Assembly: GCA_963717365.1 (NCBI GenBank)
Contig: OY970327.1
Location: forward strand, 139,599-203,598
Origin: Candidatus Saccharimonadia bacterium
GTDB lineage: Bacteria > Patescibacteriota > Saccharimonadia > Saccharimonadales > 2-12-FULL-41-12
Direction: 5' to 3'
Length of the DNA: 64,000 nt
Position 1 is the stretch's first letter. Every line of letters starts with the position of its first letter. The translations under genes were made by a program, and so were the position numbers. Positions 2,196-35,635 of this stretch are shown one piece after another. The notes under the pieces are model-generated. The model worked only from the letters and a program-made list of their open reading frames with translations. It was not told the DNA's origin and ran no database searches.

Positions 2196-2654
2196 ATGAA
2201 ATCAAAAAAATCTAATCTAATAAGGATGGATAACGTCGGCATTGTGGTGGAATCCCTTGATGACGCCATTTCTTTTTTCACTGAGCTTGGCTTAAAGCTT
2301 GAAGGTCGTGCAATGATAGAAGGGGAATGGGCTGGACGTGTCACAGGATTAGGCGACCAGAAAGTGGAGATTGCTATGATGGTTACCCCCGATGGACATA
2401 GCAAATTGGAACTATCCCGTTTCATTAGTCCATCCGTTGTTGCCGACCATCGCAATGCTCACGTGAATGCTCTTGGCTATTTACGCACCATGTTTACCGT
2501 AGAAGACATTGACAACACGGTCTCCAGGTTACATAAGTACGGCGCAAAGCTTGTCGGTGAGATAGTTCAGTATGAGAACTCATATCGTCTGTGTTATATC
2601 CGTGGTCCTGAACAAATCCTGATTGGACTAGCAGAAGAACTAAGCGGGAAATAG
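2196..2654 (+). CDS. VOC (glyoxalase/bleomycin-resistance) family protein
   Basis: The N-terminal MDNVGIVVESLDDAISFFTELGL pattern is typical of VOC domains. Confidence 0.65.
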   Translation: MKSKKSNLIRMDNVGIVVESLDDAISFFTELGLKLEGRAMIEGEWAGRVTGLGDQKVEIAMMVTPDGHSKLELSRFISPSVVADHRNAHVNALGYLRTMFTVEDIDNTVSRLHKYGAKLVGEIVQYENSYRLCYIRGPEQILIGLAEELSGK

Positions 2655-2774
2655 GGATACGTAGGCTATTAATCAACCAATAAGGTTTTATACTCATCAA
2701 TAATGCTGCACCAAGCAAAAGCATCATCAACGAACTTTGTACCTTGTCCATTTTCTTCTGATATTATTAGTAGT

Positions 2775-3506
2775 ATGAAAACTCGGTCAACTGGAATAAG
2801 CGTAGAATCGTTTCTTGAGAGTGTAAGTGACAAAAGGCGTGAAGAAGCTCACACTTTAATTGATATGATGCAAAAAATATCCAATGAAAAACCGTATATG
2901 TGGGGGTCAAGTATAATTGGTTTTGGCTCAATGCATTATAAATATGACACAGGGCGTGAGGGAGATATGCCCCAGCTTGCTTTTAGCCCACGCAAAGCTA
3001 GCATAACGGTTTATTTTGAGGGATTTGATAGATATGCTGATGAGCTGGCAGCTTTAGGCAAACACAAGCATAGCGTATCGTGTTTATATATAAATAAGCT
3101 TGCTGATGTTAATCTCGATATTTTGCGCAAAATGCTCGAGCAATCATTTGCCCTTGCCACTAAGTCATCTATCAAACCGACAACTGTCGATCAATATATT
3201 GTTAGTGTTCCTGTGGCCTCGCGCCCAAAATTTGATGAACTGCGTCAGATAGTTAGAGATGCTGTGCCGAATGCAAAAGAGGTCTTAAGTTATGGAATAG
3301 TCGGTTACAAAATCGATGACAAACGAGCCCGTGTATTCATTTCAGGCTGGAAAGATCATGTGGCTATGTACCCCGTTCCTCGTGGCAAAGAGCTGCAAAC
3401 AACGCTAGCTCCTTACATAAAAGGCAAAGGTACTTTGTGGTTTAGACTAGATGAGCCTTTGCCAAAATCACTTGTAAAAAAGGCAGTTGAAGCGTTGGTA
3501 TCTTAA
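2775..3506 (+). CDS. Tandem DUF1801 (YdhG-like) domain protein
   Basis: MWGSSIIGFGSMHYKYDTGREGDMPQLAFSPRKASITVYF, plus a second DUF1801-like half. ATG at 2775 chosen over the upstream in-frame start. Confidence 0.55.
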   Translation: MKTRSTGISVESFLESVSDKRREEAHTLIDMMQKISNEKPYMWGSSIIGFGSMHYKYDTGREGDMPQLAFSPRKASITVYFEGFDRYADELAALGKHKHSVSCLYINKLADVNLDILRKMLEQSFALATKSSIKPTTVDQYIVSVPVASRPKFDELRQIVRDAVPNAKEVLSYGIVGYKIDDKRARVFISGWKDHVAMYPVPRGKELQTTLAPYIKGKGTLWFRLDEPLPKSLVKKAVEALVS

Positions 3507-3836
3507 ACAAATACATTTGGCTTGCGGGCTTATTAATAGAGCTAATTGTGTCTAGACATTTATTTCTATCTGTTTAATTATAAAAGATCCGGCGAGGTCA
3601 AAACCGGTTCGTTCGCTTGATGTAACTTTCTCCATCTTTAATTAGTTGTTGCATCTGTTATTGTATGCTTAAATACAGGTAAAGCGGTCGTCCCACTGCA
3701 ACCATGCGCTGCTCATTCGGCGAACAACATGGACGGACACACGGGACCACCGAAGACGAATGGGTAGGCTTGCGCCGCTCAGGGTATCGTCGAACCCAAG
3801 CGGCGACAGGCTCTTATCAATTAACAAAGGGACACT

Positions 3837-5864: not shown

Positions 5865-6200
5865 ATGACCTACCTAGACATAAAAGGAAACGTAACAGCA
5901 GAATTTATACCTGAAAACCCAGGCACAGAGTTAAGTGCTGGCCGTCTAATTTTTAGATCACTTAGCTCCGAAGATAATACCTTTGCACATTTTGATCTGT
6001 TTTTTAAGGTAATGGCACGATATGCTTTAAACTGCGAGCCGCCAATTAGACTAGATCGTGGCGATACCAGACTGGTGTACTATGATGCCGATCAATCCGA
6101 AATGCACCCTAATACATTTGGGATCGAAGCCACCATTCCCGAGGGTCACTTAGTAAGCGCTGATTTTTATCGCCGCCAGCCAGAACCAAGTTTACGCTAA
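5865..6200 (+). CDS. Hypothetical protein
   Basis: ORF with ggag 9 nt upstream of the ATG at 5865. Confidence 0.4.
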   Translation: MTYLDIKGNVTAEFIPENPGTELSAGRLIFRSLSSEDNTFAHFDLFFKVMARYALNCEPPIRLDRGDTRLVYYDADQSEMHPNTFGIEATIPEGHLVSADFYRRQPEPSLR

Positions 6201-6219
6201 TTAGGAGACAAGTGAAACA

Positions 6220-7056
6220 ATGAAAGAATTAACGTCATTTTACGGTTTTCCAGAAAGAGAACGAGTCTTTGAATTTGTTAATCCCGACACATTTATTCGC
6301 AGAGCTTATGCGGAAACTGATTTAGCTGCTCTAGAACCAGATCCTGATACCTCAAAGTTTGTACTGTATGCTTCCCAACTAGCAATTGCAGTCCATCGCT
6401 CCCAAGAAGTTAGAGACCTAGAAGAAGTTAACGATGAAGACGAGACAGTACAGGATAGCGGAATACCCGAGGATACCGTAGACGTTGGAAACTTAAAAAT
6501 GCCTGTTTCTATATGGAGCCAACTTAACGAAGCCATGACCTGGCTTGACTCTATGCCTGTTATTGAAGACGATGTTCCCCAGGAGAAGCGGCCTGAGTGG
6601 TATAGAAACTCTAGTGGACGCCTCGTTTTAAATAACCCGGCGGTGTCTGCTCAAATTGCGGCCTGGGATAAAGAACCGGAGCCCTACCACCCATACAAAG
6701 GTTATTACCTGAGCATTGAACTTGAACACCTTGCAGCAGCAATTGCTGGTGATCCAAGAATGATTCAAAGCTGGGATGAAGGATTTGCATCCAGGCGAGC
6801 AACGCCCGATTACAGAGCTCGTTACGACGATTTTTTCGCTCCAGACTTTTACTTAAAAACTGCTGACGCCGACCTCCGACTAGACATGACGCAGTACGGC
6901 GAACAACGTCGTCGCATCGGACATCATGCGCTGACAGGGATTCTTGAGCAATATGGCCCCGGAACAAGGCAGAGACTGGCACGAGAAATACCCCGGCAGA
7001 TTAAAGCAGATGCTGAGCTAGCCCAACGAATTATATTTAGATCGCTTGATCCTTAA
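6220..7056 (+). CDS. Hypothetical protein
   Basis: 278-aa ORF with ggagac RBS. Confidence 0.5.
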   Translation: MKELTSFYGFPERERVFEFVNPDTFIRRAYAETDLAALEPDPDTSKFVLYASQLAIAVHRSQEVRDLEEVNDEDETVQDSGIPEDTVDVGNLKMPVSIWSQLNEAMTWLDSMPVIEDDVPQEKRPEWYRNSSGRLVLNNPAVSAQIAAWDKEPEPYHPYKGYYLSIELEHLAAAIAGDPRMIQSWDEGFASRRATPDYRARYDDFFAPDFYLKTADADLRLDMTQYGEQRRRIGHHALTGILEQYGPGTRQRLAREIPRQIKADAELAQRIIFRSLDP

Positions 7057-10093: not shown

Positions 10094-10948
10094 CTAAGAA
10101 GTCTTAGCTACTCTATTCATCAGTGACCAAAACATAGATTGACTTTTACGGTGAGAATACCTAAATGCATATTCATCAGCGTAAGCTTGTAGGTATTTAG
10201 CGTCAACATGCCTGTAAACACCTTTAATTCCACGCTTCATATTTGACCAGAGGTTCTCAACGTTCTGTGTATGAATATCACCGTGTACGTACTCTCTGTA
10301 TGAATGACGGATTTTACCATGTGTGTAGCCATGTTCTGAAAGTTTGCGGTATGAGCGATGTTCATCACTGTAGATCGTAGATTTTTCTTTTACTCCTGCC
10401 CAAATTAGAGGAGTTAAGACTTTTTCTTTAGCACTTTCTACATGTCGTACTTTAGCCTTACCCTCACGCTGTACCATTCCAAAAACAACTTGGTTATTTC
10501 CTGCTTTAACAGTACTCCGCCTAGAAGTATCGCCACCTATATACATCTCATCGACCTCAACCTCACCGAAAAGGCTATCACTATCATCGCTCATCATAGA
10601 GCGTATCTGGTGAAACATTCTCCAAGCAGTCTTATAAGTAACTCCTAGTGTTCTCTCAAGCTGCTTAGCGCTAACACCCGAGCGTGTGGCCGACATAATG
10701 AATATTGCTTCAAACCACAGCGTGAGTGGCGTAGAGGACTTATGGAAGATTGTGCTAGCTGTAGGATGGACATGGTGACCGCATATTTCACAAGAATAGC
10801 TTTTGCGTGTCTTCATAGCGTGGTGCGGGGTTATTTTTTTACATTTAACACATTCTATTCCTTCGGGATATATATAGTTAACAAGCCACTCTAAACAAGC
10901 TTCATCACTAGGGAAGTCGGTTCCTAGGTCTTTAATCGTATACTTCAT
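10094..10948 (-). CDS. IS1595-family (ISXO2-like) transposase
   Basis: N-terminal zinc ribbon CVKCKK...CEICGH, then the DDE region with EVDEMYIGG, 284 aa. Terminal inverted repeats were not identified. Confidence 0.7.
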   Translation of the reverse strand: MKYTIKDLGTDFPSDEACLEWLVNYIYPEGIECVKCKKITPHHAMKTRKSYSCEICGHHVHPTASTIFHKSSTPLTLWFEAIFIMSATRSGVSAKQLERTLGVTYKTAWRMFHQIRSMMSDDSDSLFGEVEVDEMYIGGDTSRRSTVKAGNNQVVFGMVQREGKAKVRHVESAKEKVLTPLIWAGVKEKSTIYSDEHRSYRKLSEHGYTHGKIRHSYREYVHGDIHTQNVENLWSNMKRGIKGVYRHVDAKYLQAYADEYAFRYSHRKSQSMFWSLMNRVAKTS

Positions 10949-15567: not shown

Positions 15568-15810
15568 CAAATGGAAATATATTGTATCCAATTTCTTACT
15601 TACAATAACAGTTAAGTCTGACTTACACTTTTACTCTGTTATATACTTGCAATATTATCCAATTTATGCTATCCTATATACTGCTTTGTAGCTTTTGCTT
15701 CAAATGCAACTTAAAAAGTAGGTAATCCAAGTTTTTTGCGCACTGATACCCGCGTACAACCCCCAACTTCGTAGTGCTCGCGCACCCAACGGCAACGTTA
15801 GGAGAAAGTG

Positions 15811-16368
15811 ATGGACGTACCGGAAGTACCGAAGTGGACGAAACGGCTGGCAGTCAAGATCGCCAAGTTCTTCATCCATATGACCATGAAGGTCAAGTGG
15901 CTGATCCTGGCGCTCTTTGTGACTCGCTTCGCCGCGGTCGTCATCTACCAGCCCATCGAGGACTGGAGCATGATCGACGCCTGGTGGTGGACGGAGGCTG
16001 CTTCGCAGACCATCGGCTACGGCGACGAAGCTCCTGCAACTGACCTCGGTCGCTTGCTGGCTGCTCCGTTCCACTACTTCTGGGTGTACTACACCGCACC
16101 GGCTCTGGTAGCCCACGTGGTGGCATACGTCTGGAAGAACAAGAACGAGTTCACCCATAACGAACAGGAGTGGTTGTTCAACACGATTGGCCGCATCTTC
16201 GAGTGGGTCCGCTGGCTGGTTCACGCCGTCCAGAAGATCGCCGAAGAGCGTGGCATCGTGCTTGACCCGCCGCCCAACGTCACGTCGGATGGCAGTCTCG
16301 AGACTCTCGCAGACCAAGCGCCCGACACTGACGACGGCAACCTCAACTTGCCGTATCCCGCCAAGTAG
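15811..16368 (+). CDS. Small potassium-channel protein (2-TM pore type), GC-rich block A
   Basis: Selectivity filter TIGYGD in WWWTEAASQTIGYGDEAP flanked by hydrophobic helices. aggaga RBS 5 nt before the ATG. Confidence 0.7.
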   Translation: MDVPEVPKWTKRLAVKIAKFFIHMTMKVKWLILALFVTRFAAVVIYQPIEDWSMIDAWWWTEAASQTIGYGDEAPATDLGRLLAAPFHYFWVYYTAPALVAHVVAYVWKNKNEFTHNEQEWLFNTIGRIFEWVRWLVHAVQKIAEERGIVLDPPPNVTSDGSLETLADQAPDTDDGNLNLPYPAK

Positions 16369-16426: not shown

Positions 16427-16768
16427 ATGCGTAAGTTCGGCATTTTCCTCGGCATCATCGTCATCCTGGCCATCATCGCCGCCATCGCTCTCGCCGCCAT
16501 GTCCAGTGGCATCAAGGGCACCGTCGTGGGCAAGACGTCCTCCAAGGGCACCGCCGTCTACAAGCAGAAGTGCAACAAGATGAAGGTCACGACGACCAAG
16601 AACGGCAAGAGGTCGACCAAGACCAAGAAGGTTTGCGGACCCAAGTCCTTCGCCGGCTACAAGACGAACTACCGGCTCCGCGTCAAGAACAAGAGCAAGG
16701 TCTCTACCGTCTCGGTCAGCCGCAGCACGTTCAACAAGAACCGCGTCGGGAGGAAGTACAAGAAGTAG
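16427..16768 (+). CDS. Small N-terminally membrane-anchored, Lys-rich protein, block A
   Basis: aggagg RBS, N-terminal TM segment, K-rich tail, G/C-ending codons. Confidence 0.5.
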   Translation: MRKFGIFLGIIVILAIIAAIALAAMSSGIKGTVVGKTSSKGTAVYKQKCNKMKVTTTKNGKRSTKTKKVCGPKSFAGYKTNYRLRVKNKSKVSTVSVSRSTFNKNRVGRKYKK

Positions 16769-16935
16769 CAACGCAGCAAGCTGGATCGCCAACTAAGTAG
16801 TCCTGACACAATCGGTGTCGGGCCGGCAGAGTGTCACAACATGAGCCCACGGACTCAAAGACACTCTGCCGAGGCAGGACTTTGTTAATTTGTTGATCCC
16901 CTGGATCCAAACCCAACTTACAAATTCCTGCCGCA

Positions 16936-16990
16936 TTTACCTACATAAATGTGTATTTATGCTGATGAGTCCAAAAGGACGAAAGGTAAA
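16936..16990 (+). ncRNA. Type III hammerhead ribozyme HHR1
   Basis: UUUACC-UA|CAUAAAU-GUGU-AUUUAUG-CUGAUGA-GUCC-AAAA-GGAC-GAA-A-GGUAAA. Predicted cleavage after 16943. Confidence 0.85.
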
Positions 16991-17028
16991 ATTACCAACA
17001 GAGTGTTCAATAAGGGGTTTATTTTTAT

Positions 17029-17080
17029 ACACTTTCGCCGTTTACGGCTCATCAGCATAGCTATAGTATCTATGGAGTGT
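17029..17080 (-). ncRNA. Type III hammerhead ribozyme HHR2 (divergent stems)
   Basis: Minus strand: ACAC-UC|CAUAGAUACUAUAGCUAUG-CUGAUGA-GCCG-UAAA-CGGC-GAA-A-GUGU. Stem I has one internal mismatch. Confidence 0.75.
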
Positions 17081-17260
17081 TGTACGGAAGAGCTGCATGT
17101 GTTTTTGTTGGTGGGTCGCTGGAATGCGATCCAAACACATGAGCCCTTCCGCAGGAGTTGATGGCTAACCTCCGAGCCAGTGTGATTTGTCTACTTCTCA
17201 GTAGAGAAGGACCTACTCACACGGTAGAATTTGTTGTACGTTATCCCGACTCAGACTGGA

Positions 17261-18340
17261 TCAGTCGAGGATGCGCGCTGCGTACAGGCCAGCCGGGACA
17301 TCCGGGTCATCCGCGTCGGGGACGAGCAGGACATCGATGCATCCCAGCGTGTGGTTGTACCGCGCGTCGACACCTTCGAGCTTGATGGACTGATCCTCAA
17401 GCGGTAGAAGCTTCACGAGGTTGCCCTCAGCGTCGATGACACCAACGATGCTGCCGGCGATCTGGCCCTTGATGGGTTCGAAATTCGCTTCGGCAGCTCC
17501 GGTGATGACCATGCGACCCTTGGGGTCCTCGTGCACCGAGTCGACATCGGTGAAATCCAGTTTCACCAAGTGACCTTCGTAGTCGGCGGAGCCGAGGTCG
17601 TACTGGCCGAGTTCTTCGAGCTCCAGCTGATCGATCTTGAGATCGGTGCAGAGACTCCACAGGAACTTGTCCAATGCGAGTCGGATCAGCATGTTCGGGG
17701 CAGGTGCACCGTCCTGGTCGAAGCTGTTGCCGCGCTGGGCGAGAACAAGCTGCGAGCCATGCACGGTGACTCCTTCGATGTTCAGCTCGCCGATGACGAT
17801 GTGCTCATCGAGGAACGTGTGCAGGCCTTCGAACGAGATCTTGGCGGGCAGGCCCCTGATGAGTCCGTTCTCGCCGAGCGAGTAGACCACACCAATCGAC
17901 CGGCGGACACCGCCCCAACTCATGCCACCCGATCCGACGATCAGGAGAAGGCCGTTCGGGAAACGTCTGGTCATCTCCATGCGAAGATTGCCATCGCTGA
18001 GGCGATTGATGTCGTCTCGCGTGATGATGGTCAGGGCCTCAAAATCGGCCTTGGCTTCGCTGCGTTCCCGGCCGCCAAGCGGCAGCACTTCGGGGATGAT
18101 GCGCTGCGCCGTGCCTGGCGACAGGATGTCGCGGTCTTCGCCGAGTCGCAATGCCTCTTGGACCTCTGTCCAGGCAATTGAAAACTCGGCCACCGCTGCC
18201 TGATCGTCACCGACCGAACGCAGAAGGCCCGATCGCGGCGACCATGCCACACCCGAGGCGGCTGACAGAAACGGCGGTTCGCCCGGATCCGGGTTAAGGA
18301 TGCGGTGCGTACCGAGTTGGATGAGTTTCAGCGATTGCAA
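17261..18340 (-). CDS. Hypothetical 359-aa protein, GC-rich block B
   Basis: TTG start preceded by aaggag-cacagc. G/C-ending codons. No family recognised. Confidence 0.6.
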   Translation of the reverse strand: MQSLKLIQLGTHRILNPDPGEPPFLSAASGVAWSPRSGLLRSVGDDQAAVAEFSIAWTEVQEALRLGEDRDILSPGTAQRIIPEVLPLGGRERSEAKADFEALTIITRDDINRLSDGNLRMEMTRRFPNGLLLIVGSGGMSWGGVRRSIGVVYSLGENGLIRGLPAKISFEGLHTFLDEHIVIGELNIEGVTVHGSQLVLAQRGNSFDQDGAPAPNMLIRLALDKFLWSLCTDLKIDQLELEELGQYDLGSADYEGHLVKLDFTDVDSVHEDPKGRMVITGAAEANFEPIKGQIAGSIVGVIDAEGNLVKLLPLEDQSIKLEGVDARYNHTLGCIDVLLVPDADDPDVPAGLYAARILD

Positions 18341-18403: not shown

Positions 18404-18432
18404 ATTATATAATTAAAGTGACTAAATATCAA
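18404..18432 (-). promoter_or_regulatory. Sigma70-like promoter facing block B
   Basis: Minus strand TTGATA, 17-nt spacer, TATAAT. Confidence 0.45.
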
Positions 18433-19171: not shown

Positions 19172-19201
19172 TTGACTAAATAGTACTAATTATGATATAA
19201 T
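19172..19201 (+). promoter_or_regulatory. Sigma70-like promoter facing block C
   Basis: TTGACT, 18-nt spacer, TATAAT, ending 4 nt before the GC-rich DNA starts. Confidence 0.45.
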
Positions 19202-19241
19202 CTTGCCGTGCACCACTGTCCAACAAACAAGGGAGAAGCAC

Positions 19242-19700
19242 ATGTCGGAGCATCAGAGGCACTGCCCAGATTGCGGCACGCCCATGCAGAAGTACAAGGA
19301 ACGCGGTGAGACGGTGGATCGCTGCCCGCGCGATGGCATCATCGTGCTGGATCACGGCGAACTGCCGCGGATCATCGCGTCCGTCGCCAGCCAGCCCGGC
19401 TTCCGCCCGCCGCCCCCGCAGCAGGTGAAGCGACGCCCGTTCCGAGGTCTCGGCGCCGGTGTGTTCCACCACAGCTCGTCCTCGGACAAGCACTCGAGTG
19501 GCCATCACGCGCAGGTGTTCCACCACCACAGCTCGTCGGGCCACCAGGTCCATCACGCGCCGGTGTTCCACCACGTCACCTCGGACCACCACGGTCACCA
19601 CGGCTCGCACCACCACAAGTCCCACGACAGCATCTTCGAGGACATCTTCGAGGGCTCGGAGGACGACGGCGGCGGCTGGGAGGACTCGGGCGACGAGTAG
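19242..19700 (+). CDS. Zinc-ribbon (zf-TFIIB-like) protein with His-rich, acidic C-terminus, block C
   Basis: CPDCGTPM...DRCPRDGIIVLDHGEL, then repeated VFHH/HHxxSS/HGHHGSHHHKSH. gggaga RBS. Confidence 0.6.
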   Translation: MSEHQRHCPDCGTPMQKYKERGETVDRCPRDGIIVLDHGELPRIIASVASQPGFRPPPPQQVKRRPFRGLGAGVFHHSSSSDKHSSGHHAQVFHHHSSSGHQVHHAPVFHHVTSDHHGHHGSHHHKSHDSIFEDIFEGSEDDGGGWEDSGDE

Positions 19701-19771: not shown

Positions 19772-19848
19772 ATCGGAGGTAAGAAAAGTAAAATTTGTTG
19801 TCCTAAATTGACTCCCAACACATTTTTTACAATTCTTACCTCCACATA

Positions 19849-19899
19849 TGCCTTCATGAATGTGTATTCATGCTGATGAGTCCTAAAGGACGAAAGGCA
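19849..19899 (+). ncRNA. Type III hammerhead ribozyme HHR3
   Basis: UGCC-UU|CAUGAAU-GUGU-AUUCAUG-CUGAUGA-GUCC-UAAA-GGAC-GAA-A-GGCA. Predicted cleavage after 19854. Confidence 0.85.
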
Positions 19900-21133: not shown

Positions 21134-21382
21134 TTCGTTAAAATATTTCAAGAATTTTTACAATAATAATTACTTTCACATAAGCATTTTACCCTTGTTA
21201 ACCTATATTTTATTAGCATATAAACATTTCATGTAATTATGTAGCTTTAACAACAAAAAACTGTTAAAATTTTATTAGCTCTCAGAAGCTAGAGGTGAGA
21301 CCTAGTTAACTCCTTGGTTTGTAATTCCTTGAGTGGAAGTATCTGAGTGCACATTAACACTCTAGTCGATTGGAGATCGACG

Positions 21383-22417
21383 ATGATGGCTAACGCCAAC
21401 ATTCCGCAGTTCCCGGTGAACGTGTTCACCCAGCGTGGCGAAACGGTCTACTCGCTCGTCATGAGCGCAAGCGACCTGGCGAAGTACGCCCGAGTCGAGC
21501 GGTACGAAGACACGTCTGACGGCGTCAATCGCAAGCTTGACGAGCGGCACGCCATGAGGATCGCCGAGTACATGCTCGAGCCCAAGGCTGTCATGTTGGA
21601 CGCCATCTGCGGCGACCTGCGTGGCGACTGGCAGATCATCAACAACATGCTGGTCGGCGACGAGGACTCCTACCTGTCGATCGACGATGGCCAGCACCGG
21701 TGGTGGGCAGTAACCAACCTGTTGGTCCCGGAAGAGCGTTCGCGGTGGTCATTCCCGACCGTTGCGACGATGGGTCTCGACTACGAGACTCGCATGGCCA
21801 TCTTCCTGCAGCAGTCGCAGCGGAAGTCGGTCGACAGCAAGCTCAGCCTGGCCATGAAGCACGAACTGGGTCGCTGGAACAACGATGCCGAGCGCGAGTC
21901 CTACACCCTCCTGCTGGCGCTGAACTCCGAGACTGGCTCGCCCCTCCAGGGCAAGATCATCCTCGGAGAGACGCTCCGGCGTTCCTACGAGTCCAGGTAC
22001 CGTCCCGAGGGCATTAACGCCAACGGACTGTGGAACACGCTTCGGTCCGTCATGGGCTCGAAGTCGCCACTGGCGCAGCTGTCCATGGAGAAGCGGATCG
22101 AAGTCGTCCGCAACATCATCTGGGTGGCAAAGGAGACGTGGCCAAAGGACTGGGAGTCTGACCACAGCATCCTGACGACAGCACGGGGGATCAACTCGAT
22201 CATCACGATGATCAGACGGAGGCCGTCGGAGTTCCAGGTCGCCATCAACAACGACTTCAGCATCGACAACCTGCGTCGCGTGTTCCGCTACGCCAAGTCG
22301 TTCAAGTGGCACGCCAACGAGCACAAGAACGCCAGCGACAAGACCATCACCGAGGCGCTCGACAAGGCCATCGGTGCCGGTATGAGGCGTGACAGAAGCG
22401 TTCAGCTCGTCGCGTAA
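21383..22417 (+). CDS. DGQHR-domain (DndB-like, ParB/Srx-fold) protein, block D
   Basis: Literal DGQHRWWA motif. ggaga RBS before ATGATG. Confidence 0.7.
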   Translation: MMANANIPQFPVNVFTQRGETVYSLVMSASDLAKYARVERYEDTSDGVNRKLDERHAMRIAEYMLEPKAVMLDAICGDLRGDWQIINNMLVGDEDSYLSIDDGQHRWWAVTNLLVPEERSRWSFPTVATMGLDYETRMAIFLQQSQRKSVDSKLSLAMKHELGRWNNDAERESYTLLLALNSETGSPLQGKIILGETLRRSYESRYRPEGINANGLWNTLRSVMGSKSPLAQLSMEKRIEVVRNIIWVAKETWPKDWESDHSILTTARGINSIITMIRRRPSEFQVAINNDFSIDNLRRVFRYAKSFKWHANEHKNASDKTITEALDKAIGAGMRRDRSVQLVA

Positions 22418-22495
22418 TCCCAAACGCACTAGTACGGCACCTTCCTTCACGGATGAAGTAAGGTGTCTGTACTAGGGCATGAAAGAGGTAACTCT

Positions 22496-23800
22496 ATGGA
22501 GGAAACCAACGGAAAGGTGATGGCACGAAACTGGTTCTACCAGGATTACCTGCCATCCATCTTGAGCCCGCGGTCGCTTCGCGCGAGTAACTACCTCGTT
22601 CTACTTGGGGAAGACTTTCGCGAACTGCCGCTCTTTGAAGAGCTGGAGGTCCCACTGTACCGGATTTTCTCGGTAGAGAATGACCAAAAGATCTTCGCTC
22701 GTCAGCGTGCTCACGCTCGCCGCGAGGAACTGGATGTAGTCCTGCATCACGGTGCGCTCTCTGAGTACATCCAGGACTACCTCATGACCGACCACCGGAT
22801 CTCGGTGTTCAACCTAGATATCTGTGGCTCATACTTGAAGGGGATTGACCCAGTTCTTGGGAAACTCCTGCTGTTTGCCCGGCGCAATCCGAGCACAATT
22901 ATGGCCACCTACTCGAGCGCCGCCCGAGATCGTCCGCAGCTCATGGAAGGGCTGAAATCACTCGTGGTACTTCTCTGGCTTGCTCCGGAGGTGATCGACC
23001 GCTTGGTACGGCATCTGTACAGCCAGTATCGGACGGCGTCACTTTCGGATAGAGAACGGAGCAGGGACGAAGTCAGCGTCAATATGCTGCTTCGGCACCT
23101 GTTCTGGATGAGAAGTCACATGGAACACATCCTTGTCGGATCGTATACGTTGGGCATGACGTCCTACGAAACGCTCTGCCGGGTGATGACAGACCAGAAT
23201 AAGGTCTGGGAGGAGTTCCTGGCGGACGCCACATTCCCGTTGACGTACGAAGCGGTTGTGGAATGGATCCTGAGAAAGAAAGAACCCGATCTCAGGAAGG
23301 TCAGGATGGATGTCTCCTTCGGGGACGTGCAATTCCTGACCTATGCCGCCAATAGCGGTTTCTACCAGAACTGCTACTTCGCCACCTACGAGCATGACGG
23401 GTCAACCCTGTCGCTCAGTAACTGGCTGGTCGAATCGGCCAAGAACCTCCGTACCAACCGCATTGTCATCGTTGACACTAACGGTGAGCAGTACCCGACG
23501 ACCTTTGGTCGGATTGCGGTTGACACCGACAAAGCGGTGCTCTGGAGCAAGAATGATCTGACATCCGACCTACGTAATGTGGCAATTCCGCCTTCCTCCG
23601 TTCAGGAGCGCGTGGCAGATGAGTCACAAAACGGAGTGTCGAATGACATCATGGAGCTGACACCCGAAACGATCGAGCAGATTCATAAGCTCGCCCGTCT
23701 TGGACTGAACTCCAGGGAAATTAGCGAGAAACTCTCGCTGAAGCTTCCGATGCCACGGATCACTGCCCAGGTCGCTCTGGCCCGGAGAAAATCTCCATAG
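22496..23800 (+). CDS. Hypothetical partner protein with C-terminal HTH, block D
   Basis: About 434 aa. C-terminus IEQIHKLARLGLNSREISEKLSL resembles an HTH. The start could instead be 22463. Confidence 0.55.
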   Translation: MEETNGKVMARNWFYQDYLPSILSPRSLRASNYLVLLGEDFRELPLFEELEVPLYRIFSVENDQKIFARQRAHARREELDVVLHHGALSEYIQDYLMTDHRISVFNLDICGSYLKGIDPVLGKLLLFARRNPSTIMATYSSAARDRPQLMEGLKSLVVLLWLAPEVIDRLVRHLYSQYRTASLSDRERSRDEVSVNMLLRHLFWMRSHMEHILVGSYTLGMTSYETLCRVMTDQNKVWEEFLADATFPLTYEAVVEWILRKKEPDLRKVRMDVSFGDVQFLTYAANSGFYQNCYFATYEHDGSTLSLSNWLVESAKNLRTNRIVIVDTNGEQYPTTFGRIAVDTDKAVLWSKNDLTSDLRNVAIPPSSVQERVADESQNGVSNDIMELTPETIEQIHKLARLGLNSREISEKLSLKLPMPRITAQVALARRKSP

Positions 23801-23930: not shown

Positions 23931-23983
23931 GAATTTCGTAAAGTGTGTACTTTACCTGATGAGTCCAAAAGGACGAAAAATTC
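23931..23983 (+). ncRNA. Type III hammerhead ribozyme HHR4
   Basis: GAAUU-UC|GUAAAGU-GUGU-ACUUUAC-CUGAUGA-GUCC-AAAA-GGAC-GAA-A-AAUUC. Predicted cleavage after 23937. Confidence 0.85.
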
Positions 23984-24023: not shown

Positions 24024-24052
24024 TTGACAATATAACTAAAATTTGCTATAAT
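24024..24052 (+). promoter_or_regulatory. Consensus sigma70 promoter
   Basis: TTGACA, 17-nt spacer, TATAAT, 40 nt after HHR4. Confidence 0.55.
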
Positions 24053-24159: not shown

Positions 24160-26961
24160 ATGAATTTTGATCGTACCATTATGACCAACAGGGGTAAACC
24201 AGAACCAACCAATCGTGACGAAGAAATGGTGGTTCTTTTGTTGCAAGTCCCTCGTACGAACGACAAGAAAGAGCTGGCAGCCGAACAAATGTTTGCGTCG
24301 CTCCACGGCCTGTTAATGTTTCCGCCGCAAAAAAGATTCCAGGGTGCTAAGCGGGTACGTATTAGTTTTGAAATTGCCGTGCTACAAAAACGAATCGGCT
24401 TTTATGTTTGCGTTCCACAGTATCTTAAAGGCTTTGTAGAAGAGCAAATTTATGCGCAGTATCCAACCGTTCAAATTTCTGAAGTTATAGACTACTCTGT
24501 ACCAAACCAAGCCCACCAAAGCCGAACGCTTATGTCCGAGATGCGCCTGTCTAATAACGACGCTCTCCCAATAAAAACCTTCCAGAGTTTTGAAGTTGAC
24601 CCGCTTGCAGCCATCACTGCCACCTTGGCAAAATTTGAAGCCGGCGAAGAAGCCTGGATTCAATTAGTAATCCAGCCAGCTTCGAAGAACTGGCATAAAA
24701 AAAGCGAACGCTACATTGGTGGCTTACGCGAATCATCCGGCGGTACATCTTCCAAGGGACTTATTGCTGCACTATGGGCTCCACCGGAATACACTGCTTC
24801 TGGTTCAACAGCTGCAAAGCTAACCGAATATGAACAGTCACGAGCTAAAGGCGCCGAAGATAAAAGCCATAAACTATCGTTTGAAGCATCACTACGAATT
24901 GTCTATAAAGGTAACGTATCTCCGGATGAAGCTCGGTTGCGTCTTCAATCAATTGCGGCCAGCTTTAAGCAGTTCAATACCACTTATTTGAACGGTTTTG
25001 AACAAGGACGAATTAGCGAAGACTCAGCGGCATTATTACAGTATCAGGAACGCAAGTTAAACAAACGTCCTAACATCCTTAATATTGAAGAAATTGCTAC
25101 CTTATATCACTTACCCCACACTACCGTGGAAACCCCGTATATCTTATGGGCCTTGAGCCAGACGGCTGAGCCGCCGGCCAACCTGCCAATAGTGACAGAA
25201 AGCAATAAGGCCGACATTAGCCCTATTGCAGTTGCTAATTTCCGCGGCCATAACACCGCTTTTGGCATGCCGCGGTCTGATAGGGGACGTCACTTGTATA
25301 TCCTTGGACAGACCGGTGTTGGTAAGTCGGGTATGTTGGAACTACTGACTATTGCCGATATCGATAGTCCGTACGGCTTTGCCGTTATTGACCCTCACGG
25401 CGACTACGCTATTAATATTTTAAAACGCATTCCAGCGTCTCGTGCTAAAGATGTAATTTATTTCAACCCGTCTGATATGGACTTTCCAATTGCCTTTAAC
25501 CCAATGGAAGTATCAGATCCCAAGTTGCGCACTCACACCGTATCTGAGCTGATTGGCGTTTTAAAGCGTATGTTTGAGTCATGGGGACCACGCCTAGAAT
25601 ACATCCTGCGTTATAGTCTCTTGGCACTGCTCGAATATCCAAATGCTACTATGCTGGACATCACTAAGATCCTAACTGATAAAAACTTCCGCAAAGAAGT
25701 CCTAACTTACGTAAAAGATCCCGTAGTATATAACTTCTGGACGGTAGAGTTTGCCTCATGGAATGATAAGTTTGCCGCTGAAGCAGTTGCGCCAGTTTTG
25801 AATAAAGTCGGTGCCTTTACGGCCAACCCGATTATCCGCAATATTATCGGTCAGCCAAAAAGTAGCTTTAATATCCGTCAAATTATGGATGAACGCAAAA
25901 TCTTGATTGTAAACTTAAGCAGAGGACTGATTGGCGAAGACAATGCAGGACTACTGGGAGCACTACTTGTTACCAAGATCCAACTAGCAGCCATGAGCCG
26001 AGCCGATATCCCGGTAGAGGAACGTACCCCGTTCTACTTATATGTGGACGAATTTCAACATTTTGCTACCGACAGCTTTGCCACTATTTTGAGCGAGGCC
26101 CGAAAATACGGTCTTAACTTAACCGTGGCAAACCAATATATTGCCCAGATGTCCCAAGAAGTTAAAGATGCCGTCTTTGGCAACGTCGGCTCGATGATTG
26201 CCTTCCGTATGGGCGCCGATGATGCCCGCGGCATGCTGAAATACTTCGAACCAAAATTCCTGGAATACGACCTAGTACACATGCACAACCGCCACTTTGT
26301 TATTAATATGACCATTAATGGTGAAAAAACCCAAGCGTTCTCAGCCTTGAGTATTGACCTGCCCGACCGGCAGTTTGATGAAACGCTTACTATTATTGAT
26401 CATTCTCGCTCACAATACGCCCTGCATCGTGGTTCAGTAGAAGATCATATTGGCGGCCGCTATCTGCTTGAAAATAAACCTGCACCTGCCAAAATTACCG
26501 CGCAAGCTGGCACACCTGCGCCTAAGTCGGCGGCAACACGTAAAACGGTCGCCGCACAAAGCGAAGTTGCGCGTAAACCGGAAAGTCCTCAATCCGCTGC
26601 GCCGAAACTCGCCGAAACAAGTAAACCTCAAAAATCGTTAACAAACACCATCACCCTCAAAATGAAAGGCGCTGTTGCCAGTATGGGTCATGCCGCCTTA
26701 ATGAAGCCGACCGCCCTAAAACCTGCTATTAAGCCCAATCCCGTGATTGACGTTGTATCGGCTGAAACGGCAGTTGCAGAAGTTGCCGCCAAGCCGACCG
26801 ACATTGTTAAGCCGGAAATTCCAGTTCAAAAAGCAGCAACTCAACCCATCTCTGACGCCGAGCCAGCTCCTGAGAAAAAAAAGCGCAAACGAACCAGGCG
26901 AAAGAAAAAGAACTTTCAAAGTCTGGAAAATGACACTGAACATGTCATCTTCACAAGATAA
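24160..26961 (+). CDS. VirD4/TraD-like (type IV secretion coupling / DUF87-type) P-loop ATPase
   Basis: Walker A GQTGVGKSG, Walker B LYVDEFQHF, ARKYGLNLTVANQ. Low-complexity Ala/Pro/Lys tail. Confidence 0.6.
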   Translation: MNFDRTIMTNRGKPEPTNRDEEMVVLLLQVPRTNDKKELAAEQMFASLHGLLMFPPQKRFQGAKRVRISFEIAVLQKRIGFYVCVPQYLKGFVEEQIYAQYPTVQISEVIDYSVPNQAHQSRTLMSEMRLSNNDALPIKTFQSFEVDPLAAITATLAKFEAGEEAWIQLVIQPASKNWHKKSERYIGGLRESSGGTSSKGLIAALWAPPEYTASGSTAAKLTEYEQSRAKGAEDKSHKLSFEASLRIVYKGNVSPDEARLRLQSIAASFKQFNTTYLNGFEQGRISEDSAALLQYQERKLNKRPNILNIEEIATLYHLPHTTVETPYILWALSQTAEPPANLPIVTESNKADISPIAVANFRGHNTAFGMPRSDRGRHLYILGQTGVGKSGMLELLTIADIDSPYGFAVIDPHGDYAINILKRIPASRAKDVIYFNPSDMDFPIAFNPMEVSDPKLRTHTVSELIGVLKRMFESWGPRLEYILRYSLLALLEYPNATMLDITKILTDKNFRKEVLTYVKDPVVYNFWTVEFASWNDKFAAEAVAPVLNKVGAFTANPIIRNIIGQPKSSFNIRQIMDERKILIVNLSRGLIGEDNAGLLGALLVTKIQLAAMSRADIPVEERTPFYLYVDEFQHFATDSFATILSEARKYGLNLTVANQYIAQMSQEVKDAVFGNVGSMIAFRMGADDARGMLKYFEPKFLEYDLVHMHNRHFVINMTINGEKTQAFSALSIDLPDRQFDETLTIIDHSRSQYALHRGSVEDHIGGRYLLENKPAPAKITAQAGTPAPKSAATRKTVAAQSEVARKPESPQSAAPKLAETSKPQKSLTNTITLKMKGAVASMGHAALMKPTALKPAIKPNPVIDVVSAETAVAEVAAKPTDIVKPEIPVQKAATQPISDAEPAPEKKKRKRTRRKKKNFQSLENDTEHVIFTR

Positions 26962-28282: not shown

Positions 28283-28350
28283 TAAATTCGGGGGTTACTG
28301 GGGGATGACTTAATTTGGTGGCTGGATTGCCAGAAAAAAAGTCACCCCCC
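28283..28350 (-). repeat. Conserved hairpin element, copy 1 (3' of the vWA gene); left arm of an inverted pair
   Basis: Minus strand GGGGGGUGACUU...AAGUCAUCCCCC-AGUAACCCCCGAAUUUA, which aligns with 30110-30181. Confidence 0.6.
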
Positions 28351-28402: not shown

Positions 28403-29224
28403 TTAGGCGGCGATGAGACCCTTCTGCTTGGCCGCCGCGAGATACGTTGGTACCTCGTCGAGCATGGCCTCGTAGAAGGCATTGTCCGACGTGCCGCCGA
28501 GCGATGCGAGCTGCTTGGCATCGACGTTGTCGATCAGGCGTCCGCCCTTGTCGTAGTCGACTCCGACCGGAATGTCGTCGTCGAGCGACTCCAGGTAGGC
28601 CCAGCCGCCGCGGTCGTTGCCGACGAAGATGAACTTCAGGAAGACCGCTCGGTAGCTGAGACGACGGATGACGTCGGTGGCTGCGTTCCGATCGTTGGGA
28701 GAGCCATCGGTGACGATGGTCACGAACGCCGGCGTCTGCATCGGTTTGATGGAGGGCTTGGGAGCTCCGCCACCGCGCTTCATGAAGCCACCGCCGCCGT
28801 TGGCGAAGAGGTCGCCGTTGCCGGTGATCTCCGCGACATGCTTCAGGGCGAGGGCCAGATCGGTCGAGCCGCGGGCGGTGATGCCGCTGCGCTTGACGTA
28901 CTGGTGGAAGTCGGTCAGCTTGACCAGCTTCTCCTCGATCTGATGGTCGAAGAAGATCGTTGGTACCTCGCCGTCGTCATCGACGATGACGGAGAAACCG
29001 AGCGTCCGGTCGACCGCGTCCTGTACGCTGCCGTCGCGGTACTCGTGGCTCATGGAGCCCGAGCGGTCGACGACGAGGATGCACTGCCACGCCTGGTTCG
29101 GGTTGACCTTGTTGGTCAGCATCACCTGGATGGCTGCGTTGACCTTCTTGGTCATCAAACCGCCGGTGTTCTGCTGGGCGTCAGCCGCGGCTGCCTTCTC
29201 TTTGATCGTCTTCATGTTGGCCAT
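28403..29224 (-). CDS. vWA-domain protein, TerY-like, block E
   Basis: MIDAS motif VVDRSGSMS. gaggag RBS before the ATG at 29224. Confidence 0.7.
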   Translation of the reverse strand: MANMKTIKEKAAAADAQQNTGGLMTKKVNAAIQVMLTNKVNPNQAWQCILVVDRSGSMSHEYRDGSVQDAVDRTLGFSVIVDDDGEVPTIFFDHQIEEKLVKLTDFHQYVKRSGITARGSTDLALALKHVAEITGNGDLFANGGGGFMKRGGGAPKPSIKPMQTPAFVTIVTDGSPNDRNAATDVIRRLSYRAVFLKFIFVGNDRGGWAYLESLDDDIPVGVDYDKGGRLIDNVDAKQLASLGGTSDNAFYEAMLDEVPTYLAAAKQKGLIAA

Positions 29225-29414
29225 GTGAATGGCTCCTCTCGACTTGGGAAACAGGTACAATTGTATGGATATTACCAACAACAATCTGTAAAATAACATA
29301 AACTAAGATAAATTACAATAATGTGTGAAAATGCTTGTAAAATATATAAAATAGTGTAAAATACCATTTGTATTCAGCATCCCGCTGCTTACAAAACAAA
29401 GGGGACAGATCTAC

Positions 29415-30041
29415 ATGTCACTCCAGACGAAGAAGATCCCGCTCGCCCAGGGCGACACCAAGGCACTCCCGACCAACAAGGGTCAGGTCTTCACCGCCGG
29501 TGTCGGCTGGGATCCCGCCGCGGGCCAGGACACGGTCGACCTCGACCTCTGGCTGATCCGGACGCAGAGCGACGGCAACGTCGAGTGCGCCTTCTGGGGC
29601 AACCAGAAGTGGCAGCGTCCCGATCTGGGCACCAACGGCTCCGGCAGCCCCTACATCGCGTCCCCCGAGGGAGACGTGGTCCACAAGGGCGACGACCTGA
29701 CCGGTGCCGAGTCGGACACGGGTTACGACGAGACCATCGCCCTCGACCTGTCGAAGGCGCCGGCCACCGTGACTCAGTACGCGCTGTTCGCCACGATCTA
29801 CAGCGACGCGAACGACAAGACGCTCGGCATGGCCACCAACGTCATCTGCGGCGTCAAGGAGGAGAACTCGGGCAACGAGTACACCACCGAGCTCGCCGAC
29901 GATCACGGCTTCGACCTCTCGGTCCTCATCTGCACCATCGACAACGTCGACGGCAAGTGGAAGATGACCAACAAGGACGAGGGCTACGACGACCCGATGC
30001 CGGAGATCGCCAAGAAGCTGGGCGTGGTCGGCTTCCCGTAG
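29415..30041 (+). CDS. terD: TerD-domain stress protein, block E
   Basis: GVGWD, DLDLWL, HKGDDLTGAESDTGYDETIALDL, GKWKM...GYDD. Collinear with the TerD family pattern. Confidence 0.8.
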   Translation: MSLQTKKIPLAQGDTKALPTNKGQVFTAGVGWDPAAGQDTVDLDLWLIRTQSDGNVECAFWGNQKWQRPDLGTNGSGSPYIASPEGDVVHKGDDLTGAESDTGYDETIALDLSKAPATVTQYALFATIYSDANDKTLGMATNVICGVKEENSGNEYTTELADDHGFDLSVLICTIDNVDGKWKMTNKDEGYDDPMPEIAKKLGVVGFP

Positions 30042-30109
30042 GGACGCAAGCGCTTCAGGTCTCCTGAAGAACTGCGGCGCCCTCGGTAGCTGACAAGTTC
30101 TGTCTCCTA

Positions 30110-30181
30110 GGGGGATGACTTATTTTTTTGGCCTTTCAGCCACCAATCTAAGTCATCCCCCGCTACCACCCCACGAATTTA
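30110..30181 (+). repeat. Conserved hairpin element, copy 2 (3' of terD); right arm of the inverted pair
   Basis: GGGGGAUGACUUA-(26 nt containing UGGC-N6-GCCA)-UAAGUCAUCCCCC-GCUACCACCCCACGAAUUUA. Confidence 0.6.
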
Positions 30182-30401
30182 TTCATTAATATTGATAATA
30201 TTACAAAAATACGGTACAATATCTCATGTGTGCCGTATTTTTTATGTGCACGTACCTTAACAGTGTGAGTAATAAACTACGTTTGTTGAGGAGGGTAAGC
30301 ACTTGCTATTGAGTAATATCAACTGCTTACCCTTTCCAAACTAGACAAATCTTTCTCTGACTTTCCATCTGAAGCAACGACCCAAAAGGAGCGCAGTTCC
30401 T

Positions 30402-31481
30402 GTGAGAAGCACCCTTTGGAAGTACTACAAGTACGACGTGCTGTTTGCCCTCGTGGTCACGATCGCGATCGGCTGGCAGTATGGCCTCCTGGCTGTACTC
30501 ACGTTGGGACTCGTTTCCGCCTTGGAGATCACTCTCTCTGGTGACAACGCGGTCGTCAACGCCCGAGTACTGGCCAAGATGAGCCCGTTCTGGCAGAAGA
30601 TGTTCATCACCATCGGCTACCTCATCGCCGTCGTTGGCATGCGGTTCGTCTTCCCAATCCTGATCGTGTCGCTGACCGCCGGACTTGGCTTCACCGAAGT
30701 CATCAACCTGGCATTCACCGACGTCGACACGTACGGAGACAAGCTGCATGACGCGCACGGCGAGATCGCCATGCTCGGCGGCATCTTCCTGTTGCTGGTC
30801 TTCCTGAACTACATGTTCGAAGAGAAGGAGACCACGTGGCTGGGACCGCTTGAGCGTCTGCTCGCACGCGGCGGCAAGCACGACAGTCTGTCGTACTTGA
30901 TCGCTGCGGTAGCGATTCTGGTGCTCAGCGCAACGCTCGGTGCAGACAAGCAGTATCCCGTGATGTTCGCTGGTTTCATCAGCTTGGCCGCCTTCATGGC
31001 AGTCAACATCTTCGCCGCGGCTTTCGAGCCAGAAGACGACGACGATGACATCGAGACGGTCAAGAGCAAGGTCGTTCAGAGGACGGGCATGGCGGCTTTC
31101 GGGCTGTTCATGTACCTGGAGTTTCAGGATGCTTCGTTCTCGTTCGACGGCGTGTCTGGCGCGTTCGCCATCACCGACAACATCGTCCTGATCACCGCTG
31201 GCCTGGCCATCGGCGCTCTGGCGGTTCGCTCGATGACGCTGCACCTGCTGCACACCAACAAGCTGGCCGAGTTCAAGTACCTCGAGCACGGCGCGCACTG
31301 GGCCATCGGCTCACTCGCCGTTTGTCAGCTGCTGACGATCCATTACCCGATCCCCGAGCCCCTCACCGGACTCATCGGCATCGTGTTCATCGGTCTCGCC
31401 ATCTGGTGGAGCAAGCGGGAAGAGAAGAAGGAAGCAGCCGAGCTGGCAGCAACTCCCGACCTGATGGTCGAGAAGGACTAG
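30402..31481 (+). CDS. DUF475 / TerC-like integral membrane protein, block F
   Basis: LEITLSGDNAVVNA and LEFQDASFSFDGVSGAFAIT paired motifs, multi-TM. Confidence 0.7.
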   Translation: MRSTLWKYYKYDVLFALVVTIAIGWQYGLLAVLTLGLVSALEITLSGDNAVVNARVLAKMSPFWQKMFITIGYLIAVVGMRFVFPILIVSLTAGLGFTEVINLAFTDVDTYGDKLHDAHGEIAMLGGIFLLLVFLNYMFEEKETTWLGPLERLLARGGKHDSLSYLIAAVAILVLSATLGADKQYPVMFAGFISLAAFMAVNIFAAAFEPEDDDDDIETVKSKVVQRTGMAAFGLFMYLEFQDASFSFDGVSGAFAITDNIVLITAGLAIGALAVRSMTLHLLHTNKLAEFKYLEHGAHWAIGSLAVCQLLTIHYPIPEPLTGLIGIVFIGLAIWWSKREEKKEAAELAATPDLMVEKD

Positions 31482-31508
31482 CCAGCCGCGGCTGACGAAA
31501 AGTGATGA

Positions 31509-31547: not shown

Positions 31548-31610
31548 CGCGCTTTTCGCCTTCTCAATTTTACTCACACTGTTATCTACCACCTTATTAC
31601 AACTAGTATC

Positions 31611-31652: not shown

Positions 31653-31665
31653 AAGTCTGAGTATT

Positions 31666-35582: not shown

Positions 35583-35635
35583 TTCACTTTCGTCCTTTTG
35601 GACTCATCAGCATAAATACGCATTTATGGAGTGAA
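35583..35635 (-). ncRNA. Type III hammerhead ribozyme HHR5
   Basis: Minus strand UUCAC-UC|CAUAAAU-GCGU-AUUUAUG-CUGAUGA-GUCC-AAAA-GGAC-GAA-A-GUGAA. Confidence 0.85.

Follow-up and report, generated by a model that had tools for sequence, protein, structure and literature searches.

The window analysed here is a 64,000-nt stretch of contig OY970327.1, from a Candidatus Saccharimonadia bacterium. At positions 16769–17260 of the window two blocks of GC-rich genes meet tail to tail, block A being read on the + strand and block B on the − strand. The spacer between them contains two hammerhead ribozymes that face each other, HHR1 on the + strand and HHR2 on the − strand. The genes and RNA elements of this junction, and three further hammerheads of the window (HHR3–HHR5), are listed in Table 1.

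Table 1. Genes and RNA elements at the convergent junction, and the other hammerheads of the window (positions in the window; GC3, G+C fraction at third codon positions; UTR, untranslated region; aa, amino acids)
Feature	Position	Strand	Description	Details
Block A gene 1	15808..16368	+	K+ channel-like protein, 186 aa	Pfam Ion_trans_2, E 5.8e-8; TIGYGD filter motif; GC3 0.81
Block A gene 2	16427..16768	+	Membrane-anchored lysine-rich protein, 113 aa	From the open reading frame list; GC3 0.94; last gene before HHR1
Y-shaped 3′UTR structure	16799..16881	+	GC-rich; outer stem AGUCCUG/CAGGACU	Hairpins GACAC/GUGUC and CGGCAGAGUGUC/GACACUCUGCCG
Long hairpin before HHR1	16873..16932	+	GGCAGGA...UCCUGCC	3′ arm stops 3 nt short of stem III
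HHR1	16936..16990	+	Type III hammerhead	Predicted cut 16943/16944, after A16943
Inter-ribozyme spacer	16991..17028		38 nt, AT-rich	29% GC
HHR2	17029..17080	−	Type III hammerhead	Predicted cut 17075/17074, after C17075
Long imperfect hairpin, block B 3′UTR	17084..17152	−		3′ arm stops 3 nt short of HHR2 stem III
Block B gene	17261..18340	−	DUF6910/DUF6929 protein, 359 aa	Pfam; GC3 0.75
Block B promoter	18404..18432	−	Sigma-70-like	TTGATA-17-TATAAT, 11/12 positions matching
HHR3	19849..19899	+	After GC-rich Zn-ribbon gene 19203–19700	Predicted cut 19854/19855; family model 70.7 bits
HHR4	23931..23983	+	After DndB-like gene (21347–22417) and 445-aa gene (22463–23800)	Predicted cut 23937/23938; family model 69.7 bits
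HHR5	35583..35635	−	After GC-rich minus-strand genes 37145–35984	Predicted cut 35629/35628; family model 75.9 bits

The convergent junction

The convergent spacer is 492 nt long and has a GC content of 46.5%, with 37.7% in its core (16882–17085), and the flanking genes are 58%–61% GC. The original prediction, made from the sequence of the window alone, described two convergent blocks meeting at an AT-rich spacer, with the two ribozymes 38 nt apart and each in the sense orientation of the genes that read into it. This layout is confirmed, and both ribozymes are complete and catalytically canonical by sequence.

The sequence of HHR1 is UUUACCU-A/CAUAAA-UGUGUA-UUUAUG-CUGAUGA-GUCC-AAAA-GGAC-GAA-AGGUAAA (the slash marks the predicted cut), and that of HHR2 (minus strand, 17080–17029) is ACACU-C/CAUAG-AUACUAUAG-CUAUG-CUGAUGA-GCCG-UAAA-CGGC-GAA-AGUGU. 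In HHR2 stem II is divergent (GCCG/CGGC) and loop 1 is 9 nt long; these two parts and stem III set it apart from the other four copies in the window. An origin of the pair by inverted duplication is therefore ruled out, as had also been predicted: the sequence that HHR1 and HHR2 share is limited to a 28-nt core. The hexamer ACACUC, which is the 5′ strand of HHR2 stem III plus the cleavage nucleotide, recurs 22 nt downstream of the 3′ strand of this stem (window positions 17001–17010, minus strand). Thus an inactive hairpin AGUGU...ACACU could compete with the active HHR2 fold.

Between the predicted mRNA ends at 16943 (+) and 17075 (−) lie 131 nt, and the two mRNAs have no complementary sequence in common, so that each would be cut free of antisense extension. 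No terminator-like site (a G+C-rich hairpin with a U-tract) was found in 16882–17160, the 38-nt gap between the ribozymes included. Between the convergent genes there are only weak 5-bp sites, at 16865–16878 (+) and 17162–17179 (+), and the number of such sites in the junction region is below the shuffle expectation.

Hammerhead copies and their upstream genes

All five hammerheads in the window lie downstream of a GC-rich gene and are sense to it, with distances from stop codon to cleavage site of 175, 186, 154, 137 and 355 nt for HHR1 to HHR5. The upstream genes have GC3 values of 0.68–0.94, and the neighbouring backbone genes 0.34–0.44. A ribozyme is found at five of the nine GC-rich unit ends vs none of about 50 backbone gene ends, the latter number being an estimate (Fisher p = 2.5e-5). 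GC-rich sequence ceases 50–100 nt before each ribozyme, and the promoters ahead of the GC-rich blocks are AT-rich and sigma-70-like (18432–18404 and 19172–19201 each match at 11 of 12 positions). Thus promoter and ribozyme look native and the cargo foreign.

The hairpin ahead of HHR3 (19775–19843) has 24-nt arms, and HHR4 is followed by the promoter of the next gene, a 12/12 match to consensus at 24024–24052. Two terminator-like hairpins (35708–35690 and 35675–35661) lie directly upstream of HHR5. HHR1 and HHR2 have no sense gene downstream and HHR4 stands before a consensus promoter; the window copies are therefore gene-end elements, not leaders. The 3′UTR before HHR5 (35640–35720, minus strand) also contains a short direct duplication, GGGUCUUUUUUGACUC/GAGUCUUUUUGACUC.

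An element of about 50 nt is present, in sense orientation, after two divergent GC-rich genes for TerF-vWA (−) and TerD (+), at 28290–28338 (−) and 30123–30171 (+). It displays a 13-bp stem, GGGGGAUGACUUA/UAAGUCAUCCCCC, around a small UGGC...GCCA hairpin, and the two copies are 80% identical. The 3′ regions that hold it are strongly folded (z-scores −4.7 and −6.3). The element has no U-tract and no match in Rfam, and seems to be another shared 3′ module, one that serves where the hammerhead is missing.

Ribozyme identity and covariation

The hammerhead core pattern occurs six times in the window vs 0.92 expected, and five of the occurrences are full ribozymes. The sixth (38445–38480, minus strand) has no support from the family covariance model and was rejected. 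All five copies have the CUGAUGA...GAA catalytic core (C3-U4-G5-A6-N7-G8-A9 and G12-A13-A14) without substitution, and the cleavage nucleotide H17, which is not G, is A, C, U, C and C in HHR1 to HHR5. The minimum-energy fold is the three-way junction for four of the five isolated copies, HHR1 and HHR2 among them.

Exact matches to CTGATGAGTCCNAAAGGACGAAA were sought in GTDB genomes, one for each species, and were found on at least 118 contigs; most among the matches listed are Saccharibacteria and other Patescibacteria. An alignment of 80 sequences (75 from this search and the five window copies) is the basis of the family covariance model. The model gives exactly five matches in the window, at 53–76 bits, with the next best at 10.8 bits; HHR1 scores 76.2 bits (E = 2.8e-20) and HHR2 53.3 bits (E = 2.3e-13).

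Stem II is fixed by the search pattern and is uninformative for covariation. Stem I is 97% paired in the alignment and all six of its pairs (a five-pair helix and an adjacent single pair) have changed on both sides. Stem III is 77% paired; six of its seven pairs vary and five have changed on both sides, which gives 11 of 13 pairs with changes on both sides for these two stems. For all three helices, 89% of the cells are paired and 14 of 17 pairs have changed on both sides. The A15.1-U16.1 pair is present in 5/5 window copies and is kept in 77 of the 80 family members, its only departures being three unpaired cells. Covariation is scored at 0.70, whereas shuffles give 0.17 and slid partners 0.11 or less. 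A chance motif is ruled out by E-values of 1e-13 to 1e-20 together with the covariation in both free stems.

The best-matching Rfam hammerhead model is Hammerhead_3 (RF00008, clan CL00010); as in type III, stems I and II are looped and stem III is open. With this model HHR1 scores 22.1 bits, HHR2 26.9 bits and the window copies 22.1–34.3 bits, vs a curated gathering threshold of 48.5 bits, which explains why routine annotation would miss them. Some close relatives in the family score above the threshold (49.6–49.7 bits). In IMG/VR viral contigs the hammerhead architecture of the window family is found in 59 of 80 matches. It is thus common there, and represents the classical bacterial/phage type III hammerhead rather than a new ribozyme. 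HHR1–HHR5 appear to be unannotated new members of this known class, with self-cleavage predicted. Judged from these searches, the family is very large, and is found mostly in Patescibacteria (the candidate phyla radiation, CPR) and also on phage contigs. No other ribozyme class was found near the GC-rich genes without a hammerhead, using permissive E-values, nor in relatives with multiple copies.

Structured 3′ untranslated regions

The 3′UTRs of blocks A and B are both strongly structured (z-scores −5.8 and −4.6). All five window copies have a long hairpin whose 3′ arm ends 3–6 nt before stem III. In the hairpin before HHR1, one arm (16873–16879) lies within the foreign 3′UTR and the other (16926–16932) within the AT-rich part.

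The Y-shaped structure that the original prediction drew by eye in the block A 3′UTR is the minimum-energy fold of segment 16795–16885 taken alone (−40.5 kcal/mol, z-score −4.63). It does not survive when the longer 3′UTR is folded, where its outer stem is displaced by the hairpin 16873–16879/16926–16932 that adjoins HHR1. Three mutually complementary segments, AGUCCUG (16799–16805), GGCAGGACU (16873–16881) and UCCUGCC (16926–16932), permit two exclusive folds in 16799–16932: the Y, or a hairpin that ends 3 nt before HHR1. The two folds could be a conformational switch or mere chance.

The pairing next to the ribozyme is seen family-wide (all family-wide statistics refer to the GTDB loci, with crude open reading frame calls). 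The 10 nt before stem III have a pairing value of 0.59 vs 0.46 in control windows, and the 120 nt upstream of the ribozyme fold better than controls. A C-rich, rut-like tract upstream of the ribozymes was considered and ruled out; family-wide, only the last 20 nt are pyrimidine-rich.

Origin of the GC-rich genes

The backbone of the window is about 42% GC. It is assigned to Saccharimonadales by its leucyl-tRNA synthetase homologues, the enzyme being 85% identical to that of a Candidatus Saccharimonadales metagenome-assembled genome. Between 15.7 and 37.3 kb this backbone is broken up by nine blocks of about 60% GC. Their cargo comprises the K+ channel, DUF6910, Zn-ribbon, DndB-like and its 445-aa partner, TerF-vWA, TerD, TerC and methyltransferase genes and two unknowns.

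The closest homologues of the block B DUF6910 protein show 58%–67% identity, and those that are named belong to Acidimicrobiales, Patulibacter and Solirubrobacterales. The two closest homologues retrieved lie on contigs of 71% and 74% GC with no hammerhead downstream. The GC3 contrast, and Actinomycetota homologues on contigs of 71%–74% GC, indicate that the GC-rich blocks are foreign genes from high-GC donors, which in the one case traced would be Actinomycetota. This is the phylum that hosts cultivated Saccharibacteria (PMC10633639).

An assembly chimera is an unlikely explanation of the mixed composition: there are nine separate blocks of 0.5–2.5 kb, framed by AT-rich promoters and native-type 3′ elements, and the window proteins map to a contig of 1,191,543 bp.

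The region includes a conserved gene for a type IV secretion system coupling protein (VirD4-like, DUF87/TrwB, window 24160–26961) bordered by hypervariable accessory DNA. In three relatives with a VirD4 80%–83% identical to that of the window, none of the window's cassettes was found within 10 kb of this gene. Thus the region is variable. A MurF-like gene is found 4 kb downstream of the VirD4-like gene in one of the relatives (L202) and 28 kb downstream in the window. An IS1595-family transposase is encoded at 10094–10948. Apart from this transposase, 6 kb away, no integrase or other recombinase is present among the open reading frames scanned, and integron-like cassettes were rejected. A defence-system cargo was likewise rejected, PADLOC giving one weak methyltransferase match only. 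No plasmid relatives of the DndB-like gene were found.

The Ter-type stress cluster (28403–34754) is a compositional mosaic. TerF-vWA, TerD and TerC/DUF475 have GC3 values of 0.83–0.94, and one of two PRTase_3 genes (33771–34754) has a backbone-like value of 0.38. The 32–34.8 kb stretch with the HAD hydrolase and PRTase genes is 37%–46% GC, the HAD gene being functionally linked to the Ter cluster.

Context of the ribozyme family

Family-wide, GC content exceeds the locus mean by 3–6 points in the 600 nt that precede the cleavage site, and falls 3.8 points short of it in the 200 nt that begin there, ribozyme included. The nearest upstream open reading frame on the same strand has a GC3 0.14 above the locus background (above zero in 82% of cases), as compared to 0.04 for downstream open reading frames. 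From stop codon to cleavage site the median distance is 88 nt (interquartile range 62–120 nt), and the distance to the downstream start is broad (30–223 nt). There is no common protein partner among 126 upstream open reading frames: they are mutually unrelated, form clusters of at most three, and most have no Pfam match.

Two relatives have ribozymes of the family behind accessory genes on the minus strand, and these genes converge on the VirD4-like gene. Homologous gene-plus-ribozyme units are also found in otherwise non-homologous contexts (loci L074/L019 and L034/L056).

Subfamilies have their own conserved ribozyme flanks. Many Saccharibacteria copies (for example L009, L039, L051, L102 and L115) have a CTGCTTGTC-like motif some 15–25 nt upstream of the cut, and many Parcubacteria-type copies (for example L002, L003, L018, L070 and L081) a GTTCTTTGA-like motif that follows stem III directly.

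Several Parcubacteria-type contigs carry arrays of hammerheads on the same strand, with at least 11 copies in L032, 7 in L007 and 5 in L079. The L032 arrays are at 2470–3830 and 5886–6530. In these contigs the copies are only about 130–900 nt apart. The segments between arrayed copies have no convincing open reading frames, but display shared repeated sequence and a recurring translated fragment, LSKESA. These arrays may represent small RNAs released by the ribozymes, or tandem repeat units.

Proposed function of the hammerhead pair

Since close convergent pairs were not found elsewhere (see below), two tail-to-tail cassettes are the preferred reading of the pair. HHR1 and HHR2 would be the 3′ modules of two independent units that happen to meet at this junction, each ribozyme setting its mRNA's 3′ end. 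The probability of this reading is put at roughly 0.6. What the sequences show is the ribozymes themselves, their orientation and position, the covariation across the family, the foreign composition upstream and the adjacent hairpins; transcription through the ribozymes, cleavage in vivo and a stabilising or insulating effect are inferred.

Such a cassette would have, in order, an AT-rich sigma-70-type promoter, one or two acquired high-GC genes, a structured 3′UTR with a long hairpin, and a type III hammerhead. RNA polymerase would read past the hairpins of the foreign gene, which here are without good U-tracts, and the read-through transcript would fold the ribozyme and cleave itself. This would leave an mRNA with a terminal hairpin and a tail of 10–14 nt carrying a 2′,3′-cyclic phosphate, while RNA transcribed beyond the cut, antisense RNA included, would form a separate 5′-OH fragment carrying the ribozyme body. 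The ribozyme would thus define the 3′ end without a need for termination; a side effect at this locus would be that the two mRNAs never carry complementary tails.

Several points weigh against the cassette reading. Hairpins upstream of the ribozymes (16865–16878, 35708–35690 and 35675–35661) may stop many transcripts first. Four of the nine GC-rich units have no hammerhead, and end in the shared hairpin element or in ordinary terminators. The donor lineage has been traced for one foreign gene only, and the GC3 and pairing effects at the family level are moderate and rest on crude open reading frame calls. How far the cut would insulate is uncertain, since a downstream fragment with a 5′-OH is not an evident target of fast degradation.

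The hammerheads might instead belong to a small selfish mobile element, as parts or as relics of it, or to gene-plus-ribozyme cassettes spread by phages or conjugative elements; they would then accumulate in a variable island and have no function for the flanking genes. This is considered unlikely, although near-identical copies do occur within a single genome (52 nt of HHR1 and HHR5 match at 92%), the viral matches share the architecture, the region lies beside the coupling-protein and transposase genes and is absent from relatives, and the homologous gene-plus-ribozyme units are found in non-syntenic contexts. The repeat units are at most about 59 nt, however, and the copies have no flanking terminal repeats or duplications. 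All five are sense-oriented, at a constrained distance past a gene and directly after a hairpin. Furthermore, an intact catalytic core and stems kept by compensatory changes point to selection on cleavage. The actinobacterial relatives of the block B gene have no ribozyme, so that the ribozyme did not arrive together with the gene. A viroid-like or retrozyme element was rejected as well: each ribozyme follows its own protein-coding gene, and no direct repeats bound the region.

The original prediction saw in the pair a bidirectional insulator that acts at the RNA level, each transcript being cut before it runs antisense into the opposing gene. The part of this that stands is the geometry: two sense-oriented ribozymes 38 nt apart, and predicted cleaved mRNAs that do not overlap and would be freed of any antisense tail. 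Antisense RNA is another matter. Self-cleavage does not stop RNA polymerase and the spacer has no terminator, and antisense RNA could therefore still be made, unlinked from the mRNA.

As for a dedicated and co-selected insulator between convergent units, this is judged somewhat less likely still than a selfish element. In its favour, about one third of the family members face a convergent open reading frame, often within a few tens of nt, and the ribozymes of the relatives beside the VirD4-like gene also lie at convergent junctions. These junctions of the relatives hold a single ribozyme, however, not a pair. Among 144 model matches in 100 loci there is no other close convergent pair of the family, and a scan of 241 million metagenome records gave no convergent pair at a gap of 20–50 nt. 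A second metagenome scan, at a gap of 50–80 nt, gave two matches, which are one unrelated element with both polarities. Gene ends with a ribozyme are not enriched at convergent junctions (32% vs 46%, a crude comparison with noisy open reading frame calls on both sides), and HHR1 and HHR2 are of different subtypes. The hammerhead is a dispersed element that comes after single genes, five times in the window and also in hundreds of further genomes, and bidirectional insulation is a plausible by-product of the two cassettes rather than the purpose of a dedicated module.

The unrelated element, present on two metagenome contigs (L200 3519–3635 and L201 2038–2154), has hammerheads of both polarities about 70 nt apart, and differs from HHR1/HHR2 and from the CPR family in sequence and architecture. 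It could be a viroid-like or ambisense agent caught in the metagenome.

A role as 5′ processing elements, insulating the leader of a downstream gene with a structured 5′-OH end as in RiboJ, is very improbable: it fits HHR3 only, which is separated from the ATG at 19952 by 52 nt free of promoter-like sites, and although the type III topology keeps the ribozyme body on the downstream fragment and 65 of about 100 family copies have a downstream open reading frame on the same strand (a quarter of those within 30 nt), it is contradicted by HHR1 and HHR2, which have only antisense sequence downstream, and by HHR4 with its consensus promoter. HHR5 also seems to be followed by the promoter of the next gene (a reading by eye; the promoter scan does not list the site), and across the family it is the distance to the upstream stop that is tight, and the upstream gene that the GC3 anomaly follows.

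Relation to known systems

Bidirectional intrinsic terminators have a hairpin and a U-tract on both strands and act on the polymerase. The ribozyme pair resembles them in its place between convergent genes, where it is expected to limit antisense read-through, but the spacer has no such site and ribozymes act on RNA only. Phage morons are autonomous promoter-gene-terminator units of atypical base composition with intrinsic terminators, defined in phage genomes. The units described here are likewise small, self-contained transcription units of foreign composition between resident genes, each with its own promoter and its own 3′ signal; unlike morons, they end in a hairpin and a hammerhead and lie within a CPR chromosome. 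RiboJ is an engineered ribozyme insulator placed in the 5′UTR. There too a hammerhead uncouples a coding unit from neighbouring transcribed sequence, whereas the hammerheads of the window are natural and stand at the 3′ end.

The role proposed for clustered hammerheads in bacterial prophages is to divide long transcripts into mRNAs of gene length (Perreault et al. 2011, PMC3088659). As in those clusters, several canonical hammerheads are found here within a few kb, flanking single genes or short blocks of inconstant identity. The window differs in being part of a Saccharimonadales chromosome with no recognised prophage, in that each cassette has its own promoter, and in that the ribozymes follow high-GC xenologs and abut a hairpin, two of them lying tail to tail.

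For ribozymes in bacterial 3′UTRs, processing of the mRNA 3′ end has been proposed, with a resulting change in stability or expression (Felletti, Bieber and Hartig 2017, as summarised in PMC6765202). The likeness is a self-cleaving ribozyme past the stop codon; the study worked with twister ribozymes and engineered reporters, in contrast to the natural hammerheads, known from sequence, described above. PMC6765202 also describes the mammalian Clec2 3′UTR hammerhead, which is also situated between the stop codon and the normal 3′-end signal, so that cleavage redefines the mRNA end. That ribozyme is eukaryotic and discontinuous, and it removes the polyadenylation signal and lowers expression, whereas HHR1–HHR5 are compact, bacterial and preceded by a hairpin that would be protective.

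Gene-flanking hammerhead clusters are thus already known. The strong representation in Patescibacteria, the placement after high-GC xenologs and the abutting hairpin appear not to have been reported before; a literature search found no paper linking hammerheads with Patescibacteria or Saccharibacteria.

Biological significance

The roles of self-cleaving ribozymes in bacteria are still described as “largely elusive” (PMC6765202). The HHR1/HHR2 locus offers a clean natural test case, since in the tail-to-tail arrangement the two ribozymes belong to the upstream gene and to nothing downstream. Their exclusive association in the window with foreign high-GC genes, echoed by the family statistics, suggests a concrete job, in which they would define the 3′ ends of acquired genes and protect them. 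As Saccharibacteria can now be manipulated genetically (PMC10633639), this idea is directly testable. It is this broader cassette pattern that is worth following up.

A wider proposal, possible but held only tentatively, is that hairpin plus hammerhead is a standard 3′ module by which Saccharibacteria, and more widely CPR bacteria, domesticate acquired genes, with the ribozyme replacing termination and shielding a streamlined genome. The acquired genes would often be high in GC and possibly derived from the host. A foreign gene may become placed between a native AT-rich promoter and a ribozyme, and the resulting gene-plus-ribozyme cassettes may be the units exchanged among CPR genomes. If true, this would give bacterial hammerheads a concrete and general function.

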